Source of the DNA: Actinomycetota bacterium | GTDB lineage: Bacteria; Actinomycetota; UBA4738; HRBIN12 | DNA: 64,000 nucleotides | NCBI GenBank assembly: GCA_036505195.1 | Contig: DASXTX010000006.1 | Coordinates: forward strand, 11,553-75,552 | Reading direction: 5' to 3' | Shown here: piece by piece, positions 2,767-63,240 of the stretch | Numbering within the stretch: the first letter of the stretch is position 1 | How the letters are laid out: the number at the start of each line of letters is the position of its first letter | The notes under the pieces: generated by a model | Told to the model about the DNA's origin: nothing | What the model saw: only the letters and a program-made list of their open reading frames with translations | The model's database searches: none | Program-made: the position numbers and the translations under genes

Positions 2767-3858
2767 CTACGTCTCGGCCTCCGACTCGCGCGCGATCGCG
2801 ATCTTCCGAGCCTCCTCGATGACCCGCTCGACGAACCGGTCCTCGGGGATCTTGTCGACCACCTCGCCCCTCACGATGAGGAACCCCTGGCCCTTGCCGG
2901 CCGCGATCCCGAGATCGGCCTCCCGAGCCTCGCCCGGCCCGTTCACGACGCATCCCATCACGGCGACGCGGATGGGGACCTTCAGCCCCTCGCGTTCGAT
3001 CGCCTGCTGCACCTGCTTGGTGAGGCCGAGGACGTCGACCTCCGCCCGCCCGCAGGAGGGACACGCCACGAGGTCGAGTCCGCGCTTGCGCAGGCCGAGC
3101 GACTGCAGGATCCACGTCCCAACCTTGACCTCCTCGACCGGATCGTCCGTGAGCGAGACGCGGATCGTGTCGCCGATCCCCTCCGAGAGCAGCGTGCCGA
3201 TCCCCACCGCGCTCTTGACACCCCCGGCCGGCATCGGGCCGGCCTCGGTGACGCCGAGGTGCAGCGGATAGTCGCAGGCCTCCGCGAGCAACCGGTACGC
3301 CTGGATCATGACGCCGGCGTTCGAGTGCTTGACCGAGATCTTGATATCGGAGAAGTCCTCCTCTTCGAGGATCCTGGCCTCGTACAGCGCGCTCTCCACC
3401 AGGGCCGCCGCCGTCGGAGCGCCATGCTTGGCCAGCACGCCTTTCTCGAGCGACCCCGCGTTGACCCCGATGCGGATCGGCACGCTCCGAGCCCTGGCCT
3501 CGCGCGCGATCAGCCGGACCTTGTCCTGGTACTTGATGTTTCCCGGGTTGATGCGCAGCCCCTGGACCCCGGCCTCGAGGGCGGCCATCGCGTACTTCCA
3601 CTGGAAATGGATGTCGGCGACCACCGGGACCGTCGACTTGGCCGCGATCGCCGTCAGAGCCTCGGCGTCCTCCCAGTGCGGCACGGCCACCCGGACGATG
3701 TCGACGCCGGCCGCGACCAGCGAGGCGATCTGCTGCAGGGTCGCGTTGATGTCGGCGGTCTTGGTCGTGGTCATCGACTGGACGCGGATCGGTGCGTCGC
3801 CGCCGATCGTCACGTCGCCCACCCGCACCTGCCGGGTCTTCCTGCGTTCGGTCAGCAC
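2767..3858 (-). CDS. ispG: 4-hydroxy-3-methylbut-2-enyl diphosphate synthase (flavodoxin type)
   Basis: GcpE family sequence ([26 protein letters not shown]). Start assigned to GTG 3858 ([11 protein letters not shown]). The upstream part of the 547-aa track ORF runs across the neighbouring gene and the repeat element. Confidence 0.9.
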
Positions 3859-3880
3859 GGTTCCAGTCTCCCATTCCCTA

Positions 3881-3927
3881 CGGGGGGTACCGCTCGCGCA
3901 TCCGCGCTCGCTCCTTGAGCCCCCGGC
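3881..3927. repeat. REP-like GC-rich intergenic repeat, copy A (ispG 5' leader)
   Basis: A 37-nt core TACCGCTCGCGCATCCGCGCTCGCTCCTTGAGCCCCC is identical to the copy at 40438-40474. Outer inverted repeat is GGGGG(G/C)T...AGCCCCC. Confidence 0.8.
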
Positions 3928-3941
3928 ACCCCCGGCCCGCG

Positions 3942-4391
3942 CTACTCGCCGAACACGTGGAAGACGACCTGCCGGTCCTTGGGTTCGTCCATCTCGAACA
4001 GGATCAGCCGCTGCCACCGCCCCAGCATCGCCGAGCCGTCCGCCACGGGGATCGCGTGCGAGGAGGCCGAGAGCAGCATCGCCTTCACGTGCGCGGGGCC
4101 GTTCCGGCGCTCGTGGGACTCGTCCAGGTTCTGCGTGCGGCGCGCCGCGTCGTCGTGCGCGTAGTACACGTCGTCGGGGACCAGGCGCAGCATCCGGGCC
4201 CGGAAGTCCTCGAGCGCGCCGTCCTCCCACTCGTTGACGATCAGCGCGCACGTCGTGTGGGCGCAGAACGCAACCACCGATCCATCGGTGACGCCCGAGT
4301 CCTTGATCGCACGCTCGAGCTCCTCCGTGAGGTCGAGGAACGCGTAGCGCTGCGGAGCGGCGATCTCGATGGTCGTGGTTGCGGATCTCAT
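3942..4391 (-). CDS. YjbQ/UPF0047-family protein (secondary thiamine-phosphate synthase-like)
   Basis: 149-aa ORF resembling the YjbQ family ([23 protein letters not shown]). Its start overlaps the stop of the histidine kinase (ATGA). Confidence 0.7.
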
Positions 4392-8674: not shown

Positions 8675-10267
8675 TCAGAGCAGGATCAGGCGGAGGTAGA
8701 TGAAGGCGGCGGGGGCGACGAACAACACGGAGTCGATCCGGTCCATCACGCCGCCGTGACCGGGCAGGATCCCGCCCATGTCCTTGATCTCGAGGTCCCG
8801 CTTGAGCAGCGATTCGGCCAGGTCGCCGAGCGGCGCGAACAGCGCGACCACCACAGCCAGGCCCACCGAACGCCCGATCGTGTCGAGCAGCGAGACCGAC
8901 GAGCCCACGACGCCGACGGCGACCGCGATCACGACGAGCGTGGCGCCGATCGCGCCCTCCCACGACTTCTTCGGGCTGATGGTCGGCGCGAGCGGGCGGC
9001 TCCCCCAGAAGTAGCCGACGCCGAACGCCGCCGTGTCGTACACGAACGTGAGCCCGATGATCGAGAGCGTCAAACCCTCGCCGTCGGGAAGCTTCAGGAC
9101 CGCGAGCGCATAGGCGGCAAGCAGGGGGATGTACGCGACCCCGAGCACGGTGATCGCGATGTTCGACACGACGTTGCGGCGATGATGCGCGGGAACGGTC
9201 ATGTACCAGAGGAACGTCGCGAACAGCGAGAGCGCCATGATCGCGAGCATCGCGTTCTCCCCCCGGTAGTACCCGGCGCCCAGGATGAGCGCCCCCGAAA
9301 CCAGGCCGAGCGCCGTCGCCGGCTGGTAGTGCCGCTTCTGCATCGCGAGGTAGAACTCCCCCTGCGCGAACAGCACCACGATGCCGGCGAAGATCGCGAA
9401 CGCCCCCGGCCCGATCTGGATCGCGCCGACCGCCAGAGCCGCGAGCACCAGACCCGTGAGGAACGCCGTCGGGACGTCCCGGCCCGGGCCGGCGCGTTCG
9501 GGTTCGGCGCCGACCTCGATCGCGGTCGGTTCCTGCCAGCTCGGCCCGCCGAAGCCCTCGGCCCCGACGCGGACCGGGCGCGAGGTCTCGGCCTCGTCCG
9601 CCCCGCCCTCCTCGCCGAGGAGCTGGGCGATCGCGACCTCCTCGGTGGGCTGCGGTGCCGGCGCCTCCGGCTCGACCTGCACCTCGTCCCGGACCGACTC
9701 GGCGAAGTGGTCGGCCGCGGCCTCGACGGCCTCGATGTCCGGCGCGTCCTCCAGGTTCCCTGCCACGTTCTCCGGCGCGACCTCCGGGACCACCACCGTC
9801 TCGGTCTCCTCGATCAGCTCGGCCACGCCCGGCTCGTCGCCGGGGAGGTCGACGTACCCTCCCGAGCCGGCCTCGGTGCCCTCGTCGACGTCGTAGCTCT
9901 CCGCCTCGGCCTCGAACAGGAACGAGCCGACCCCGCCCTGCTCCCCCTCGACGTCTGGCTCGACCTCTGGCTCGACCTCTGGCTCGGCCTCGGACGGCGA
10001 CTCCCGGGCCGCGAACGGCTCGTCGCCGCCGGACGGTTCGCGCGCATAGGGCTCGGCAGCCGCCGCCTCCTCGGTTTCGGGGGAACGTTCCTCCGGCTGC
10101 TCCGGTTCCACGGGCGACGGCTCGTCGCGGCCCTCCGTGCCCGACGCCTGTTCCGAACCCTTGCCCTCGGATGACTCCGGCCAGTCGACGTCCTGGATCG
10201 GCGCGAAGAACTTGTCGAGATCCTCGAAGAGGTCCTCGCCCTCGGTCCGGTCCTCGTCCTCCGGCAC
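8675..10267 (-). CDS. cdsA: phosphatidate cytidylyltransferase with ~250-aa acidic N-terminal extension
   Basis: The C-terminal ~280 aa are polytopic with the CdsA signature (SLLKRDLEIKDMGGILPGHGGVMDRIDS). The upstream in-frame region keeps GC3-rich codon usage and starts 3 nt after the frr stop. Whether the extension is translated is unverified. Confidence 0.75.
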   Translation of the reverse strand: MPEDEDRTEGEDLFEDLDKFFAPIQDVDWPESSEGKGSEQASGTEGRDEPSPVEPEQPEERSPETEEAAAAEPYAREPSGGDEPFAARESPSEAEPEVEPEVEPDVEGEQGGVGSFLFEAEAESYDVDEGTEAGSGGYVDLPGDEPGVAELIEETETVVVPEVAPENVAGNLEDAPDIEAVEAAADHFAESVRDEVQVEPEAPAPQPTEEVAIAQLLGEEGGADEAETSRPVRVGAEGFGGPSWQEPTAIEVGAEPERAGPGRDVPTAFLTGLVLAALAVGAIQIGPGAFAIFAGIVVLFAQGEFYLAMQKRHYQPATALGLVSGALILGAGYYRGENAMLAIMALSLFATFLWYMTVPAHHRRNVVSNIAITVLGVAYIPLLAAYALAVLKLPDGEGLTLSIIGLTFVYDTAAFGVGYFWGSRPLAPTISPKKSWEGAIGATLVVIAVAVGVVGSSVSLLDTIGRSVGLAVVVALFAPLGDLAESLLKRDLEIKDMGGILPGHGGVMDRIDSVLFVAPAAFIYLRLILL

Positions 10268-12200: not shown

Positions 12201-13088
12201 TCAGCCTTCCTTCGGCTCGGCCTCGGAGCCCGGGACCGAATCGGGGACGATCGGCTCGGGCTCCGCGGCGGCCTCGGCGGCCGGAGCGGCCTCGGGGGCC
12301 GGGGCGGGATCGGGTGTCGGAGCGGGCGCGGCCGTCGGCTTCGGGGCCGGGGCGGGCTCCGGCTCGATCTCGGGACCGGTCGCGCGCGTCACGACGGCCT
12401 CGCGGCCCTCTTGCCGTCCCTCGGCGAGGGCATCCGCGATCAGACGGGTGACGAGCGAGACCGATCGGATCGCGTCGTCGTTGCCCGGGATCACGAAGTC
12501 CACCTCGTCCGGGTCACAGTTCGTGTCCACGATCGCGATGACCGCGATGCCGAGTTTGCGCGCCTCGTTGACCGCGATGTGCTCCTTCTTGGTGTCGATC
12601 ACGAAGATCGCGTCGGGGAGCCGTTCGAGGCTTTGCATGCCGCCGAGGTTGCGCTCGAGCTTCTCCTTCTCGTGGCGCAGGCGGATCGCCTCCCGCTTGG
12701 GGAGGAAGTCGAACGCGCCGGTACGTTCCATCTCGCGTAGCTCGCGCAGACGGAGCAGGCGACGCGACACCGTTTGGAAGTTCGTGAGCATCCCGCCGAG
12801 CCAGCGGGTCGTGACGAACGGCATCGCGACGCGTGCGGCGTGCTCGGAGATGACCTCCTGCGCCTGCTTCTTCGTTCCGACGAACAGGATCACCCCGCCG
12901 CGGCGGCCGAGATCCCTCGCGTAGGCGTAGGCCTCCTCGAGTCCCGACAGGGTCTTCTCGAGGTCGATGATGTAGATCCCGGAGCGTTCCCCGTACAGGT
13001 ACCGGCCCATCTTCGGGTTCCAGCGTCTTGTCTGGTGCCCGAAGTGCACCCCTGCCTCGAGGAGCTCCCGCCTGGTGACGACAGGCAT
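12201..13088 (-). CDS. rpsB: 30S ribosomal protein S2 with Pro/Ala/Glu-rich C-terminal tail
   Basis: [25 protein letters not shown] and following S2 sequence. GGAAGGAGGG SD precedes ATG 13088. The last ~60 aa are low complexity. Confidence 0.92.
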
Positions 13089-13150
13089 GGTGCCCTCCTT
13101 CCGGTTGTCCCTCCGCCCGGTTCTGCGCGCCTGCGGCCCGGCTTCGTGTG

Positions 13151-13190
13151 AGGGGTTGCCGCTCGCGCTTCGCGCTCGCTGCTTGACCCC
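13151..13190. repeat. REP-like repeat, diverged copy C (rpsB 5' leader)
   Basis: GGGGTTGCCGCTCGCGCTTCGCGCTCGCTGCTTGACCCC aligns with the 3881/40358 elements in the same orientation. Confidence 0.6.
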
Positions 13191-13300
13191 TGACCCGGCC
13201 GGGACCCCGCGGACGATCCCCGGACGTGTGAGCTCGGCGTCGAGACGCCGGCGAACGCGCAGTCTACCAGCGGCGTTGTCGCGGGCCGCCGTTTCCCGGT

Positions 13301-18521: not shown

Positions 18522-19907
18522 ATGCGGGCGATGGAGCTCGACGTCCTGGTCACCGAGGGGCTCGGGGACTCGAGCTACGTCCTTACCCGGGGTGACGAGG
18601 CTGCGGTCGTCGATCCTCAGCGCGACGTCGAACGGTTCGTCGACGCTGCCCGTGCCCACGGAGCAACCATCCGGCGCGTCGTCGAGACCCACGTCCACAA
18701 CGACTACGTCTCGGGCGCGCTGGAACTCCGCGCGGCGACCGGCGCCGAGATCTGGGGCCCGGCCGAGGCGGGTTATGGGTTCGGGTACCGACCGGTGGAG
18801 GACGGCACCGAGATCCCGTTCGGCGATGCAACCCTCCGCGGTCTCTCGACCCCCGGCCATACGCCCGAACATCTCGCCTACCTCGTGCGCGACGGCCCGG
18901 AACGGGTCGCGCTGTTCTCCGGCGGGAGCCTCATGGTCGGCGGCGCGGGGCGGACCGACCTGCTCGGTCCCAAGCGGACGGACGAGCTCACGCGGCTGCA
19001 GTTCCGTTCGATGCGGCGGCTCGCGGACCTGCCCGACGGGGTCCGGGTGCTCCCCACCCACGGCGCGGGGAGCTTCTGCGCCGTCGGGTCCCCGGGCGAA
19101 CGGCGGACGTCGACGATCGCCGAGGAGCGCGCCACCAACCTCTCGTTCACGGAGACCGACGAGGAGGCCTTCGTGCGACGACAGCTGACGGGCCTGATGG
19201 CGTTCCCCGACTACTACGCGGACATGGCGCCCATCAACCGAGCCGGACCGCCCGTGCTCGGGGCACCGCCGCGACCCCGGGCGATGACCGCCGACCAGGT
19301 GGCGGACGCGCTCGCCGCGGGTGCCCGGCTGGTGGACGTTCGCGACGGGGCGGCGTTCGCCGAGCGACACGTCGCGGGGTCCCTGAACGTCCCGCTCGAG
19401 CCGTCGTTCCCCTCCTACGTCGGTTGGCTGCTGCCCTTCGCGACACCGGTGGTGCTGTCCGTAGCAGATGACGAGAGGGACGACGATGCGCTCGATGAGG
19501 CATCCCTACAGCTGCGACGCATCGGCTGGGACGCGGTCCTCGGCCACCTCGAGGGCGGCATCGATACCTGGACCGCGTCGGGTCGCGCGACGCGTTCGTT
19601 CCCGATCCTGCGGCTGGAGCAGCTGCTCGACGAGCTCGCCGCGGGCGAGGCCGGCGAGATCCTCGACGTTCGGCAGACCACGGAGTGGGACGCGGGCCAC
19701 CTCGAGGGTTCGCGGCACGTGTTCGTCGGGGACCTGCCCGAACGTCTCGACGGATTCGACCCCTCGGAGCGGCAGACGGTGATCTGCGCGAGCGGCTACC
19801 GCTCGTCGATGGCCGCGAGCCTGCTCGACGGCGCGGGCGTCCCGGTGCGGCTCGTGGCGCGGTCGGGCGTTCCCCGGGCGCTCCGCTCGCTCGCCGCATC
19901 CCGATGA
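18522..19907 (+). CDS. MBL-fold hydrolase fused to two rhodanese-like domains
   Basis: N-terminal metallo-beta-lactamase motif ([15 protein letters not shown]). The C-terminal half has two rhodanese-like segments, the second with ICASGYRS. Confidence 0.75.
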
Positions 19908-28240: not shown

Positions 28241-28831
28241 CTAGCCCTGGATCTCTGCCTCGGAGGGCTCGGTCTGGGCCACCCCGTCGTCCGACGCCTC
28301 GGCCGCGGGTACCGCGTCCGACGTGTCGGCGTCTGCAGCTTGGGTCCCGGCCGACTCGGCGTCCGTGATCTCGGTCGCGTCGGCGGTCTCCTCGGCCCCT
28401 TCGACGGATCCGTCGTCGGCGGCAGCGGCGGAGCCTGCTGCGGCCCGTTCGGCCTCGGCAGCGGCGATCGCCGCGAGCTCCTCGTCGCCGAGCCGGCGCT
28501 CGCGGATCCGCGCCTTCTTGCCGCGGCGCTCGCGAAGGTAGTAGAGCTTGGCTCGGCGTACGTGGCCACGCGAGACGACCTCGAGCTTGCCGATCGACGG
28601 CGAGTGGAGAGGGAACGTCCGCTCCACGCCCACGCCGAACGAGATCTTCCGGACGGTGAACGTCTCCTGGAGGCCGCCTCCCTGACGCCGGATCACGACA
28701 CCCTGGAAGACCTGGATGCGCTCGCGGCCCGCCTCGACCACCCGGACGTGCACCTTCACGGTGTCGCCCGGCCGGAACTCGGGCAGATCCGTGCGGAGAT
28801 AGGGGGCGTCGACGAGATCGGTCTTGTTCAT
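28241..28831 (-). CDS. rplS: 50S ribosomal protein L19 with ~80-aa acidic Ala-rich C-terminal tail
   Basis: The first ~115 aa are L19-like ([38 protein letters not shown]). The remainder is A/E/D/T-rich low complexity. Confidence 0.9.
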
Positions 28832-28856: not shown

Positions 28857-28939
28857 GTGCGGGAGCTCAGGGAGCGAGCGCGCTCCGCGGGTGCGGGAGC
28901 TCACGGAGCGAGCGCGCTCCGCGCGAGCGGCGGCCCCGG
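28857..28939. repeat. REP-like repeat, locus D: two tandem copies in inverted orientation (trmD-rplS spacer)
   Basis: GTGCGGGAGCTCA(G/C)GGAGCGAGCGCGCTCCGCG occurs at 28857 and 28891 (34-bp period). Its reverse complement, GCGCTCGCTCC(C/G)TGAGCTCCC, matches the core of copies A and B. Confidence 0.7.
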
Positions 28940-28966
28940 AGGAACGGGCGCGACGGTACGCGTCGG

Positions 28967-31718: not shown

Positions 31719-32036
31719 TCAGTCGACGATCTCGACGCCGGTGTGATGGATCCCCGCGCGCATCCCCGCGGCCTTCATCACGATCCTGATCGCGCGAGCC
31801 GTGCGGCCGCCGCGACCGATGACCTTACCCATGTCGTCCTGCGCGACGCGAAGGGTGAGCAACACGCCGCGTTCGTCGTCGACCTGCTCGACATGGACGG
31901 CGTCCGGATCGTCCACCAACTCGCGCGCGAGGAAGTCGAGGAGATCCTTCATGTTCTCTGGCATGTTCTCCGGCATGTTCTCTGGCATGTTCTCCGGCAT
32001 GTTCTCCGGCATGTTCTCCGGCACGTCTTCCGGCAC
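31719..32036 (-). CDS. KH-domain RNA-binding protein (YlqC/UPF0109-like) with repeat-encoded N-terminus
   Basis: The core MKDLLDFLARELV...GKVIGRGGRTARAIR (GxxG KH motif) begins at ATG 31952. The maximal ORF from GTG 32036 adds (V/M)PE(D/N) x7. Confidence 0.8.
   Translation of the reverse strand: MPEDVPENMPENMPENMPENMPENMPENMKDLLDFLARELVDDPDAVHVEQVDDERGVLLTLRVAQDDMGKVIGRGGRTARAIRIVMKAAGMRAGIHHTGVEIVD
31953..32036 (-). repeat. 12-bp tandem repeat x7 (ATGCCGGAGAAC consensus)
   Basis: Minus-strand reading is GTGCCGGAAGAC GTGCCGGAGAAC, then five copies of ATGCC(G/A)GAGAAC, directly abutting ATGAAG of the KH core. Confidence 0.95.
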
Positions 32037-39510: not shown

Positions 39511-40353
39511 TTACGACTGGCACTGCGGGCAGAAGTACGCGTTCCGCCCCGATATCTTGACGGCCTGGATCGGCGTCCGGCAGCGACGGCACGGGAGGCC
39601 GGCCCGCCCGTACACCTTGAGTTCGCTCTGGAACTCGCCCGGCTTGCCGAACAGGTCCAGGTACGCCTCGTCCTCGAGCGTCGTGCCGCGGAACCGGATC
39701 GCCTCCTGCAGGACCTCCTGCATCGCGCGGTAGAGCCGTCGCACCTCCTGGGAGGACAGCGTGTCCGACGGACGGTCGTAGCGCAGACCGGCGGCGAACA
39801 GGACCTCGTCGGAGTAGATGTTCCCCAGACCGCTCACGAACTTCTGATCCATCAGCAGCTGCTTCATCTTGGTCGCCCGCTGCGCGAGCGCGGATCCGAA
39901 GGCCTGCCACGTGAACACGTGGTCGAGCGGATCGATCGCGAGGTGCTGGAGCTCCTTGACCTTGCCGAGCTCGTCCGCGGTGGCGACGAACATCTCGCCG
40001 AACGTCCGCGGGTCGACGAACCGAAGGTCGCCGCCCTGCTGGAAGGTGAGCACCACATGGGTATGCGGCGGGAGCGCCACCCGCTTGTTGGCGCGCACGA
40101 ACTGCCCGCTCATGCCGAAGTGCGTCACCAGCACGTCGCCATTGTCCATGTGGAGCAGGAGGTACTTGCCGCGTCGCTCGGCCTTGGTGAACTTGCGCCC
40201 CACGACGAGATCGCTGAACTCCTTGCGCTTGGCGTGCCGGCGGATCACCCGCATCGCGTTCTTCGACGGCCGCACCTCCGCCTCGACGACCTTGCGACCC
40301 ACGACGTCCTTCTCGAGGTCCCGGCGCATCACCTCGACTTCGGGAAGTTCCAC
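39511..40353 (-). CDS. fpg: formamidopyrimidine-DNA glycosylase family protein with atypical N-terminus
   Basis: Fpg/Nei fold with H2TH and a C-terminal zinc finger (CRRCRTPI...CPQCQ), in the canonical position after rnc. The only nearby start is GTG 40353, giving M-E-L-P-E-V-E instead of M-P-E-L-P-E-V-E. Confidence 0.8.
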   Translation of the reverse strand: MELPEVEVMRRDLEKDVVGRKVVEAEVRPSKNAMRVIRRHAKRKEFSDLVVGRKFTKAERRGKYLLLHMDNGDVLVTHFGMSGQFVRANKRVALPPHTHVVLTFQQGGDLRFVDPRTFGEMFVATADELGKVKELQHLAIDPLDHVFTWQAFGSALAQRATKMKQLLMDQKFVSGLGNIYSDEVLFAAGLRYDRPSDTLSSQEVRRLYRAMQEVLQEAIRFRGTTLEDEAYLDLFGKPGEFQSELKVYGRAGLPCRRCRTPIQAVKISGRNAYFCPQCQS

Positions 40354-41210
40354 TACGCCCCCTTCTTCCGGGGGGCTACCACTCGCGCATCCGCGCTCGC
40401 TCCTTGAGCCCCCCCGGCCCCCTTCTTCCGGGGGGCTACCGCTCGCGCATCCGCGCTCGCTCCTTGAGCCCCCCCGGCCCCCCACTTCCCGGCAGGCTCC
40501 GCCGGCTCCGCACGCTCCGACAGGCGGACGTAGGCCTGATGCGCGGCCTGCTGCTCCGCCTCCTTCTTCGAGCGGCCGATGCCGGTGCCCCACTCCTTGC
40601 CGGCGAGGAACACCGTGGCCGTGAATTCCTTCTGATGATCGGGCCCGCGTTCGCGGATCCGGTACTCCGGCACCGAGCGCACCTCGGCGGAGGCGAGCTC
40701 CTGCAGGATCGTCTTGTAGTCGCGCTCGCCCTCGCCGCGGACGTAGGCGATCATCCGGGGCCGGAACACCCGCTCGACCAGCTTGCGCGCCGCGGGGAGG
40801 TCGCGATCCAGGTACACGGCGCCCAACACGGCCTCGAGCGCGTCCGCCAGGATGCTGCTCTTGTCGCGGCCCCCGCTCATCTCCTCGCCGCGGCCGAGCA
40901 GGACGAATCTCCCGAGCCCGAGGTCCCGGGCCGCGTCGGCGAGCGCGCTCATGTTGACGATCGCGGCCCTCAGCTTCGCGAGTTCGCCCTCGGGCATCTC
41001 GGGGAACTCGCGGAAGGCCATGTCGGTGACGACGACCCCCAGGACCGCGTCGCCGAGGAACTCGAGGCGCTCGTTGTTCGCGGGCAGCTCGTTCTCGAAC
41101 GCGTACGAGCGGTGGGTGAGCGCGAGTTCACGCAACGACCCGTCACGGAACCGGACGCCGAGGATCCGATCGAGCGCTTTCGGCCCCTCCGGGGCGCGCT
41201 CCCGGGCCAC
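40353..41210 (-). CDS. rnc: ribonuclease III with repeat-encoded C-terminal tail
   Basis: RNase III signature (ERLEFLGDAVLG) and dsRBD (GPDHQKEF...SKKEAEQQAAHQAY). The ORF then reads through both 60-bp repeats and stops (TAG) overlapping the fpg GTG. Confidence 0.88.
   Translation of the reverse strand: MARERAPEGPKALDRILGVRFRDGSLRELALTHRSYAFENELPANNERLEFLGDAVLGVVVTDMAFREFPEMPEGELAKLRAAIVNMSALADAARDLGLGRFVLLGRGEEMSGGRDKSSILADALEAVLGAVYLDRDLPAARKLVERVFRPRMIAYVRGEGERDYKTILQELASAEVRSVPEYRIRERGPDHQKEFTATVFLAGKEWGTGIGRSKKEAEQQAAHQAYVRLSERAEPAEPAGKWGAGGAQGASADARAVAPRKKGAGGAQGASADARVVAPRKKGA
40358..40477. repeat. REP-like repeat, locus B: two tandem 60-bp copies (1 mismatch)
   Basis: The unit CCCCCTTCTTCCGGGGGGCTACC(A/G)CTCGCGCATCCGCGCTCGCTCCTTGAGCCCCCCCGG occupies 40358-40417 and 40418-40477. 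Confidence 0.9.
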
Positions 41211-63141: not shown

Positions 63142-63172
63142 CCAGAGGGCGCTGTTAGCATGGCGCCTCTGG
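63142..63172 (+). terminator. imperfect hairpin after the protease gene, touching the tRNA 5' end
   Basis: CCAGAGGGCGC-(10 nt)-GCGCCTCTGG, about 10 bp with one bulge. Confidence 0.35.
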
Positions 63173-63240
63173 CCCGTGGGGTAACGGTAGCCCGGCTGAC
63201 TCTGGATCAGTTAGTCCTGGTTCGAATCCAGGCGGGCCAG
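63170..63240 (+). tRNA. tRNA-Gln (anticodon CUG)
   Basis: Hand-folded cloverleaf. Acceptor is TGGCCCG/CGGGCCA with U1-A72 (typical of bacterial tRNA-Gln). D stem is GGGT/GCCC. Anticodon stem is GCTGA/TCAGT with loop CT-CTG-GA. T arm is CCTGG-TTCGAAT-CCAGG. No encoded CCA. Confidence 0.85.

Follow-up and report, generated by a model that had tools for sequence, protein, structure and literature searches.

By definition REPs lie outside genes, and they are typically found as inverted pairs that flank or accompany a RAYT gene; MITEs carry terminal inverted repeats from a parent IS together with a fixed target-site duplication. According to PMC3184786 and PMC10969869, some members of the MITE class, of which Correia/NEMIS, ERIC, RUP and BOX are examples, extend or fuse open reading frames (ORFs). 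The RPEs (Rickettsia palindromic elements) of an obligate intracellular alphaproteobacterium are AT-rich and ~105 to 150 bp long; in PMC10969869 and PMC3184786 (summarizing Ogata et al. 2000, 2002), they appear, like the element described here, as palindromic interspersed repeats that are read through in frame in unrelated housekeeping genes and also occupy non-coding sites, and both are presumed to be selfish and tolerated. Mycobacterial interspersed repetitive units (MIRUs), as portrayed in PMC12548453 and PMC3184786 (Supply et al. 1997), are intercistronic repeats of 40 to 100 bp with a variable tandem number and the orientation of the operon, for which filled and empty sites exist. They share with our element an actinobacterial host, size, variable tandem number, co-orientation, retained coupling to the downstream gene and filled and empty sites, but a MIRU has a small ORF of its own that overlaps both neighbors, whereas our element extends the upstream ORF and has no conserved start codon.

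We analyzed a repeat at the junction of rnc and fpg in a 64-kb stretch of DNA, referred to here as the window. Sequence comparisons indicate that this repeat is probably one site of a mobile family of small palindromic repeats that is tolerated in coding DNA and has spread in a clade of uncultured soil Actinomycetes. The element resembles the Rickettsia RPEs and the mycobacterial MIRUs and is a member of neither, as judged by description in the case of RPEs and by comparison with one unit in the case of MIRUs. The features of the junction are as follows:

40353..41210, minus strand: rnc (RNase III) ORF, from its translation and the Pfam domains Ribonucleas_3_3, Ribonuclease_3 and dsrm
40429..40475, minus strand: hairpin core of the second tandem unit (covariance model R1, 71.9 bits; TRF)
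40369..40415, minus strand: hairpin core of the unit nearer to fpg, in the reading frame of rnc (covariance model R1, 67.6 bits, E 9e-14; MFE -28.7 kcal/mol)
40478..40489, minus strand: partial "third copy" GGAAGTGGGGGG, an SD-like motif (read from the sequence; 2.2 copies by TRF)
40351..40355, minus strand: TAGTG junction, in which the rnc stop and the fpg GTG share one base (G); a translational-coupling junction found in filled and empty relatives
39511..40353, minus strand: fpg (formamidopyrimidine-DNA glycosylase), the downstream cistron (Pfam Fapy_DNA_glyco, H2TH, zf-FPG)

TRF detected a tandem repeat at 40357-40489 with a period of 60 nt, 2.2 copies, 95% matches and a score of 245. Its two units, 40358-40417 and 40418-40477, differ by a single base, in agreement with the preliminary description of two tandem 60-bp copies with one mismatch. 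That description had placed them in a spacer between rnc and fpg, which proved incorrect: the rnc ORF is stop-free up to the repeats, contains both units in frame (a 20-residue peptide present twice, followed by GA) and ends at a TAG (40355-40353) that overlaps the fpg GTG. The dsRBD of RNase III ends at residue 227 of 285, and the two repeat units account for the final ~40 codons. Continuity of the ORF, the GC3 phase and gene calls suggest that the repeat adds a 40-residue tail to RNase III. Homologues of this protein form length classes of 242 aa (empty site), ~265 aa (one copy) and ~285 aa (two copies), and the C terminus reads ...AEPAPVKGA-stop at empty sites, whereas at filled sites 17 residues separate AEPAPV from KGA-stop. 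Across relatives, the site carries 1, ~1.7, 2 or 3 copies.

The SD-like motif at 40478..40489 also closes each 60-nt unit, as GGAAGAAGGGGG, and the tandem unit thus corresponds to the hairpin plus a duplicated SD-like spacer. In a relative with an empty rnc-fpg site (L231), GTGAAGGGAGCC-TAG-GTG is already there; the final GAAGGGGG is therefore ancestral, and the internal one was duplicated as part of the tandem unit. This empty site rules out the earlier proposal that the repeat donated the Shine-Dalgarno sequence of fpg, since that sequence pre-exists there. The element probably inserted 4 to 5 codons ahead of the rnc stop, just upstream of the existing fpg Shine-Dalgarno sequence, after which the hairpin and SD-like spacer were duplicated in tandem.

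Searches with nhmmer and a covariance model placed further family members at 3872-3928 (minus), 13142-13196 (minus), 28857-28902 (plus) and 28890-28943 (plus), and none elsewhere in the 64-kb window, so that the dispersed copies reported previously at three additional loci were recovered. The 43-nt core pattern gave 3 matches at ≤3 mismatches versus 0 expected from 100 shuffles. Genes were identified by Pfam as rnc, fpg, rpsB, rplS, trmD, a UPF0047 gene and ispG/GcpE. The additional loci are:

3880..3926, minus strand: one copy in sense orientation; the 83-nt spacer that holds it separates the UPF0047 gene (stop codon at 3942-3944) from ispG (GTG at 3858) (covariance model R1, 63.4 bits; aligned to L015; Pfam GcpE)
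13149..13193, minus strand: diverged copy in sense orientation whose loop is GAA; the rpsB ATG (13088) follows ~60 nt downstream (covariance model R1, 49.6 bits; fold z-score -2.98)
28857..28940, plus strand: one full and one partial copy with a 34-nt period in the 135-nt trmD-rplS spacer, antisense to the operon (nhmmer; covariance model R1, 40.7 bits; TRF)

All four loci had been described as spacers, which is correct for the three non-coding ones (the UPF0047-ispG spacer, the rpsB 5' region and the trmD-rplS spacer) but not for the main locus, situated inside the rnc ORF; the copies at 28.9 kb are inverted as stated, that is, antisense to the operon. The ispG site is filled in six related contigs as well, forming a site cluster of 7, the rpsB site is filled in L196, and the trmD-rplS site is empty in L006.

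The family consensus has ~54 nt and ~80% GC and reads GGGGGG-TTC-GGGGGGCTCAAGGAGCGAGCGCG-GAAC-GCGCGAGCGGTAGCCCCCC. In the hairpin into which it folds, the internal loop CAAGGA/GGU lies between the outer stem GGGGGGCU/AGCCCCCC and the inner stem GCGAGCGC/GCGCGAGC, which contains a tandem G.A, and the terminal loop, mostly GAAC or GGAC, varies and has 3 to 5 nt; the MFE of the 47-nt hairpin is ~-29 kcal/mol. The suspected stem-loop and its conservation across copies were substantiated by compensatory changes, as 10 pairs were changed on both sides versus 3.9 expected (0 of 500 shuffles as high), and paired cells amounted to 93.2% as compared to 89.0% in shuffles and 33 to 57% in slid controls. 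This is illustrated by the replacement of GCGC/GCGC by GCCC/GGGC at six sites, by that of GGGGGCT/AGCCCCC by GCCGCT/AGCGGC and by matched run lengths in the arms (5/5 versus 6/6). In the rpsB copy (13149..13193), a C and a G were lost jointly, one from each arm of the outer stem. The internal-loop sequence CUCAAG-N-AGCGA...GCGGUAG is kept even in short variants without the inner stem, a hint that it is specifically recognized in a way not named by a purely selfish model. Parts of the core sequence were fixed in both collection scans, and conservation at those positions is therefore partly due to ascertainment. Conservation of the hairpin most likely reflects recognition by the moving machinery, an RNA-level effect of the sense hairpin near ribosome-binding sites, or both.

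Other interpretations of the element were rejected. A mini-ORF (AAGGAG, 9 nt, ATG CGC GAG CGG TAG) has its ATG solely in GGAT-loop variants; the pairing registers do not fit a K-turn or a tRNA D-arm likeness of the internal loop; and an intrinsic terminator is contradicted by the GGAAGAAGGGGG or other G/A-rich sequence that follows the hairpin in place of a U-run, as well as by the location of the hairpin inside ORFs.

The suspicion that further copies exist beyond the window was confirmed. Among the matches listed in scans of public genomes and metagenomes, we counted 152 copies in 134 arrays, corresponding to 57 site clusters; genuine copies were present in at least 12 species-level MAGs of uncultured soil Actinomycetes/Actinomycetota and in 104 of 108 metagenome contigs, and viral contigs contained zero copies. 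The first genome scan used a loose pattern, and the at least 118 loci that it listed were mostly chance matches in unrelated high-GC taxa. At least 12 orthologous sites carried the element in one genome and lacked it in a close relative, with flanks that were 73 to 94% identical. The element is thus gained or lost between close relatives, and its tandem number varies at a given site. Eight clean filled/empty junctions had no consistent target-site duplication (either none or inconsistent short G-rich repeats), and no transposase was found in the family-bearing loci; mobility is consequently deduced from presence and absence only, and deletion or recombination could contribute to the filled/empty differences. 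Searching the whole window against Rfam at the gathering threshold gave one match, a tRNA, and the best hit at the locus (E ≤10) had an E value of 1.6. Literature searches with the element sequence produced no match either, in line with the previous remark that no named family corresponds to it.

To assign coding status, we used a local codon-phase GC analysis in place of a simple ORF/GC3 gene finder that missed several real genes. About 25 of the 57 site clusters (~45%) are located within ORFs that continue in frame through the element. Most of them occupy the last codons ahead of a stop overlapping the next start; 20 read-through sites are C-terminal and 3 to 5 internal. Three copies are inside domains (DnaE PHP, LeuA), and Pfam confirmed DnaE PHP, LeuA_dimer and MiaB TRAM as contexts of embedded copies. 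Of 22 read-through sites, 15 have a stop that shares 4 or 1 nt with the next start codon. Inserts in ORFs measure 51, 54, 57, 60 and 120 nt, versus 55 nt for one non-coding insert, and the periods of non-coding arrays are 48, 59, 61, 62 and 69 nt. Reading frames are used at 19, 6 and 2 sites, and 0 sites terminate at the TAG of the element. The copies in ORFs are all in sense orientation, none in the TAG-containing frame. Between co-directional genes, 29 site clusters are sense and 3 antisense, and every antisense copy is non-coding.

With its canonical 54 nt, the element spans 18 codons; in the sense direction, two frames out of three are stop-free and encode peptides rich in Gly/Ser/Arg/Glu/Ala/Pro (GGSGGSRSERERASGSPP or GAQGASANARAVAP). 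An insertion near the 3' end of a gene should therefore spare the native stop and the bases that this stop shares with the following start. Termination-reinitiation would continue to couple the downstream cistron, so that such an insertion would be nearly neutral. The antisense strand has two stop-free frames as well, and coding tolerance alone is thus insufficient to account for the complete sense bias. The missing classes, namely copies in the TAG frame, antisense copies in ORFs and copies in structurally important protein regions, may have been shaped by selection or by the insertion mechanism.

These properties set the element apart from the described systems. Unlike RPEs, from which host and size distinguish it on the basis of descriptions, it is 54 nt long, has ~80% GC, belongs to free-living soil Actinomycetes, is concentrated at the 3' ends of genes and where cistrons meet, occurs in tandem arrays and is sense-locked. 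Unlike MIRUs, it forms a strong hairpin that is conserved, and protein domains are among its insertion sites. With REP/BIME/REPIN it shares a short GC-rich imperfect palindrome, high copy number, frequent intercistronic location, a GTAG motif and the absence of target-site duplication, but it is often intragenic, forms direct arrays and carries GTAG inside the stem (GGTAG occurs in 90 of 112 unique copies, in the 3' arm/internal loop). Like MITEs, it is a small non-autonomous repeat with terminal inverted repeats, the outer arms GGGGGGCT/AGCCCCCC being terminal on the 3' side with an extra 5' G-run outside; in contrast to MITEs, its eight junctions have no fixed target-site duplication. Of the preliminary assignment as REP/MITE-type, the dispersed, GC-rich and mobile-like hairpin family was thus retained, whereas the hallmarks of REPs (extragenic location, inverted pairs and, in the loci searched, a RAYT) and of MITEs (a consistent target-site duplication) were not found.

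It is conceivable, though rather unlikely, that the repeat is a functional cis-acting RNA, whose sense hairpin, a few nucleotides ahead of ribosome-binding sites, acts on the polycistronic mRNA as a 5' stabilizer, processing site or modulator of translational coupling and was recruited repeatedly for its usefulness. The sense bias of 29 versus 3 agrees with this, as do the covariation in the hairpin, the loop sequence kept across species and short variants, and the compensatory GCCC/GGGC change in the orthologous ispG-site copy of L127. The geometry is also suggestive: the downstream start lies 36 to 69 nt past the anchor base (the first G of GCGAGC) and, at most sites, 5'-UTR sites included, ~5 to 38 nt past the hairpin. 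However, host and neighboring genes are functionally unrelated, presence and copy number differ among close relatives with the same operons, ribosomes must melt the hairpin where it is translated, and an intercistronic role is impossible for the three mid-domain copies. With 32 G.U versus 18 A.C pairs, moreover, the structured strand is not singled out as RNA. A cis-acting RNA of this kind is compatible with a mobile origin.

In a further reading, which we consider speculative, the element would be more than tolerated: as an orientation-specific mobile hairpin, recognized via its conserved CUCAAG-N-AGCGA/GCGGUAG loop, it would home to G-rich, SD-like sequences where two cistrons meet and would in this way always be transcribed and translated together with its host genes. 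If true, it would represent a mode of insertion not described before, or else a domesticated device for tuning translational coupling and for adding disordered tails to housekeeping proteins throughout an actinobacterial clade.

The element is unlikely to be of REP type; in that case a RAYT (Y1 HUH) transposase would move it by way of hairpins in single-stranded DNA, and strand asymmetry in replication or transcription would set its orientation. The imperfect palindrome with conserved mismatches, GTAG in ~80% of copies and the absence of target-site duplication would fit such a mechanism, and d(GCGAAGC), a very stable DNA mini-hairpin, arises in GAA-loop variants. Orientation bias, which is typical of single-stranded DNA transposition (IS200/IS605), is seen for the element too, but the 64-kb window holds both orientations. 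GTAG is in the 3' arm rather than 5' of the stem, the arrays are direct instead of inverted BIME/REPIN pairs, and many copies are intragenic. No RAYT was seen in ~1.7 Mb around the elements, where IS608 TnpA, IS200 TnpA and E. coli RAYT had no tblastn match, a weak test with approximate queries.

That the family is a diverged branch of the mycobacterial MIRUs appears very improbable. The phylum is the same, the copies of 40 to 100 bp vary in tandem number, and PMC12548453 and PMC3184786 describe MIRUs as intercistronic, operon-co-oriented units with ORFs that overlap their neighbors and retained coupling. Nevertheless, the 53-bp MIRU292 unit (PMC7977185), the one published unit compared, showed no similarity: its score was 18, shuffles averaged 16.9 ± 2.8, and 170 out of 500 of them reached that score. 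Our element lacks its own start codon, is fused to the upstream ORF and is also found within domains. A selected protein module, that is, a repeated C-terminal linker or tail peptide, is disfavored and hardly credible, since the peptides from the three different frames are unrelated to one another, roughly every second copy is non-coding and loop codons vary freely, even if many copies are predicted to be translated into hydrophilic, low-complexity peptides.

To our knowledge, in-frame "protein-coding palindromes" have so far been regarded as a peculiarity of Rickettsia, and we know of no well-known actinobacterial repeats other than MIRUs that respect translational coupling. The present family indicates that high-GC actinobacteria living freely in soil harbor a small repeat with inherent frame neutrality. 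Essential proteins (RNase III, MiaB, DnaE and LeuA) appear, from their sequences, to have been repeatedly extended or interrupted with neither the protein nor the coupling to the next gene being destroyed. Length polymorphism caused by the element will confuse gene calling and orthology in MAGs, and the element could serve as a VNTR marker for typing strains of an uncultured lineage. Why it is locked so completely in sense orientation is a mechanistic question that can be tested, and the family as a whole constitutes a natural experiment on the insertion tolerance of proteins and operon junctions.

Pfam identified the genes flanking the copies of the element, a hairpin-forming repeat of about 54 nt, as those for RNase III, Fpg, S2, L19, TrmD, a UPF0047 protein and GcpE/IspG, in agreement with the names in the preliminary description. 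The window has a GC content of 70.3%, and a 43-nt core pattern matched it 3 times at up to 3 mismatches (0 expected from 100 dinucleotide shuffles). It was searched with an HMM built from copies and then with a covariance model, and beyond the loci listed here neither detected a further copy in the 64 kb.

Copies of the element in the window
40369-40415, minus strand: element copy, HMM and covariance model
40429-40475, minus strand: element copy, HMM and covariance model
3880-3926, minus strand: element copy, HMM and covariance model
13149-13193, minus strand: element copy, HMM and covariance model
28857-28902, plus strand: partial element copy, HMM only
28893-28940, plus strand: element copy, HMM and covariance model

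At the main locus, Tandem Repeats Finder reported a period of 60 nt at 40357-40489 (2.2 copies, 95% matches, score 245). The two full 60-nt units differ by a single base, and the tandem unit comprises the hairpin and a copy of the Shine-Dalgarno-like GGAAGNNGGGGG. This array had been described as a spacer between rnc and fpg that supplies the Shine-Dalgarno sequence of fpg, and neither proposal held. The minus-strand rnc frame has no stop codon ahead of the repeats, remains open through both units and terminates at a TAG, the last base of which doubles as the first G of the fpg GTG; the dsRBD of the encoded RNase III ends at residue 227 of 285 (Pfam). Frame, stop and TAG(G)TG junction are identical in two related MAG contigs, L012 (one copy) and L055 (~1.7 copies); contigs with L numbers come from MAGs or metagenomes. 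Because the frame is open and the junction is common to these contigs, the array is predicted to be the 3' end of rnc. By length, the RNase III homologues form three groups, of 242, 262-268 and 278-285 aa. The 242-aa proteins end in ...AEPAPVKGA*, and a one-copy protein has its additional residues between AEPAPV and KGA*. The empty rnc-fpg site of L231 reads ...CCCGCGC followed directly by CGGTGAAGGGAGCCTAGGTGGAG, and L232 carries a 51-nt insert at this boundary. Since the L231 site already has the Shine-Dalgarno sequence and the stop/start junction, both are older than the element.

The Fpg start (40345-40353 in the window; also L012, L055, L231 and L232) reads GTG-GAR-CTN-CCC, that is, (M)ELPEVE. 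In canonical Fpg (MPELPEVE), Pro2 is the catalytic N-terminal nucleophile; the Fpg of this lineage lacks Pro2, its residue 2 aligning to Pfam profile position 3, and would be either an atypical enzyme or a case of unusual initiation. L19 (rplS, 28241-28831, minus strand) has 196 aa, its domain ends at residue 112, and the C-terminal ~80 residues form an acidic tail rich in Ala, Asp and Glu.

A first scan with a loose pattern of one-genome-per-species contigs gave mostly chance matches, but among them the HMM detected genuine copies in no fewer than 12 MAGs, which carry the label uncultured Actinomycetes or Actinomycetota and come from soils in Denmark and elsewhere. Two of the contigs match the window over kilobases at 86-90% identity. 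In a second scan, with a tighter pattern in which neither stem was constrained, the search retrieved 108 metagenome contigs, chiefly from soil and rhizosphere (median GC 71%), 104 of which have HMM-detectable copies. The viral contigs searched contained none. Copies beyond the window are numerous; the overall count is 152 copies in 134 arrays, which group into 57 orthologous site clusters. Their consensus reads GGGGG(G)-NYC-GGGGGGCTCAAGGAGCGAGCGCG-[GAAC/GGAC/GGAT...]-GCGCGAGCGGTAGCCCCCC. At the core positions that the search patterns fixed, different ones in the two scans, conservation is partly ascertainment. Degenerate extra copies upstream of intact ones (L168 ~1380-1430, ispG site; L200 ~2390-2440, rnc-fpg site) show that older units decay within arrays.

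The stem-loop proposed previously was supported by folding (~-29 kcal/mol for the sense strand, that of the surrounding genes) and by covariation.

Predicted hairpin, sense strand
Outer stem: GGGGGGCU/AGCCCCCC
Asymmetric internal loop: CAAGGA/GGU
Inner stem, containing tandem G.A: GCGAGCGC/GCGCGAGC
Terminal loop: 3-5 nt, variable

Among 97 distinct sequences, 93.2% of the cells were paired, compared to 89.0 ± 0.4% in shuffles, and 10 of 15 pairs had both-sided changes (3.9 expected). None of 500 shuffles attained any of five pairing measures, and sliding the partner by 1-3 columns reduced pairing to 33-57%. Compensatory changes include GCGC/GCGC to GCCC/GGGC at six unrelated sites, and GGGGGCT/AGCCCCC to GCCGCT/AGCGGC in L003 and to GGGGGACT/AGTCCCCC in L122. 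The G-run and C-run lengths also covary (72 copies 6/6, 19 copies 5/5, 9 discordant). G.U cells (32) were not in clear excess over A.C cells (18), and the pairing is compatible with either strand, as RNA or single-stranded DNA.

A shorter relative in L232, GGGCTCAAGCAGCGA-CA-GCGGTAGCCC, lacks the inner stem. In this variant, which has 72-nt units, GGGCTCAAGCAGCGACAGCGGTAGCCC precedes a second hairpin (GGCTTCG...CGAAGCC). Its copies (10015-10060, 12569-12650 and 19200-19340, all sense) lie at the 5' ends of genes (rnc, khpA-like) or in a spacer. Even this variant retains the internal-loop sequence, which points to specific recognition by some factor. At the rpsP-khpA junction, L232 bears these elements instead of the 12-nt tandem repeat CATGTTCTCCGG (x7.2) found at 31950-32035 of the window. 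There, the gene for a KhpA-type KH protein (31719..32036, minus strand) directly follows rpsP, and the repeat encodes its N-terminal (PENM)6, a run of in-frame ATG codons.

Joined flanks of each site were used as query against all collected sequence. At no fewer than 12 sites, one contig is filled and another, with flanks 73-94% identical, is empty; the preliminary description had suggested such a comparison.

Clean examples of filled and empty sites
L121 filled, L161 empty: 60 nt, upstream of a leuB-like start
L123 filled, L213 empty: 57 nt, within a LeuA_dimer domain (Pfam)
L144, L159 and L225 filled, L139 and L072 empty: 54 nt, within a DnaE-like polymerase, in its PHP domain (Pfam)
L119 filled, L103 empty: 57 nt, within another ORF
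L157 filled, six other contigs empty: 120 nt, two units, after a MiaB TRAM domain (Pfam)
L118 filled, L059 empty: 55 nt, non-coding

Clean junctions showed no consistent target-site duplication, and five of six clean targets have a GGAG/GAGGG/GGGG/AAGGGAG motif on the 3' side of the insertion point, at a distance of 0-6 nt. A Y1/RAYT transposase was not seen in family-bearing loci (~1.7 Mb of fragments; approximate query sequences). L072 also has a copy in a formiminotransferase-like ORF (3890-3990), the downstream part of which is apparently out of frame with the rest. A pseudogene, a split gene or an assembly error could account for this.

The coding phase of the flanks was derived from GC by codon position, which in these genomes is 0.85-0.99 at the third position.

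Position of site clusters relative to genes
Read-through from the upstream ORF, which stops within 60 nt: 20
Within an ORF that continues past the element: 3-5
Stop codon 0-22 nt ahead of the element: 12
ORF ended by TGA/TAG in the variable loop: 1-2
Non-coding and antisense, between co-directional genes: 2-3
5' UTR, divergent or unclear: 17

The element thus appears to be largely intragenic, in frame and in one orientation, which the preliminary description had missed. Between co-directional genes, 29 clusters were sense and 3 antisense. The predicted translated sites use the frame ...GGSGGSRSERERASGSPP... (19 sites) or ...GAQGASANARAVAP... (6 sites); the third was used at 2, both with 3-nt loops that shift the frame past the TAG. 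No ORF among ~27 translated sites ends at the element's own TAG (GG-TAG-CC), where one third would be expected by chance (P roughly 1e-5). Of the 22 read-through sites, 15 have a stop that overlaps a potential start, by either 4 nt (NTGA) or 1 nt (TAGTG/TGATG), and six others have a start up to 9 nt past the stop; the median hairpin-to-stop distance is 20 nt. Tandem periods are 60 nt in ORF arrays (window, L157, L217, L148) and 48, 59, 61, 62 and 69 nt in non-coding ones.

The element matched no named family, as previously stated: neither Rfam covariance models (window and locus) nor a literature search for its sequence gave a match. The only Rfam match in the window at the gathering threshold is a tRNA gene (63170-63240). 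Between convergent genes, the stretch 2213-2290 holds a GC-rich hairpin with perfect pairing, GGGCCGGAGCC-GTAC-GGCTCCGGCCC, and after it a tandem duplication of 27 bp, also perfect (GCCCTTCGGGATGTCCGTTCGTTAGGC x2.1). The earlier REP/MITE-type assignment stands as to a hairpin-forming, mobile sequence with filled and empty sites. However, REPs are extragenic and differ in location and arrangement, and MITEs have the target-site duplication that the element lacks. MIRUs have an ORF of their own whereas the element has none, and MIRU292, the one unit compared, showed no similarity (alignment score 18, shuffled mean 16.9; 170/500 shuffles as high). Rickettsia palindromic elements (RPEs) likewise insert in frame (PMC10969869, PMC3184786), but by description differ in host and size. 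We classified the element as an RPE/MIRU kind of repeat without a name of its own. MAPK_TR_3, a tandem repeat with a length of 57 bp from M. avium subsp. paratuberculosis K-10, contains CAAGGAGTGATCGCGAGCGCGGGCGAAGCCC (PMC7977185, Table 1), which aligns to the element core better than expected by chance (30 versus 16.3 ± 2.9; 2/500 shuffles as high). As a lead only, this mycobacterial repeat may be distantly related to the element.

The simplest account is that a small palindromic repeat proliferated in this lineage and that the surviving copies are the least harmful ones. Because the canonical 54 nt equal 18 codons, with two of the sense frames open, insertion into the last codons of a gene would extend the protein by a segment that is hydrophilic and probably disordered. 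The native stop would stay where it is and still overlap the next start codon. Termination-reinitiation requires overlaps or very short distances, according to reviews of translational coupling (PMC10666635; PMC12548453). Insertion in the TAG frame would cut translation short by 25-40 nt and break the coupling of the gene pair, which we propose as the reason why such sites are absent. Among the classified site clusters, no antisense copy lies within a translated ORF. Since the antisense strand also has two stop-free frames, the restriction to the sense orientation calls for a strand-specific insertion process or a role at the RNA level; the insertion process could involve a Shine-Dalgarno-like target or single-stranded DNA.
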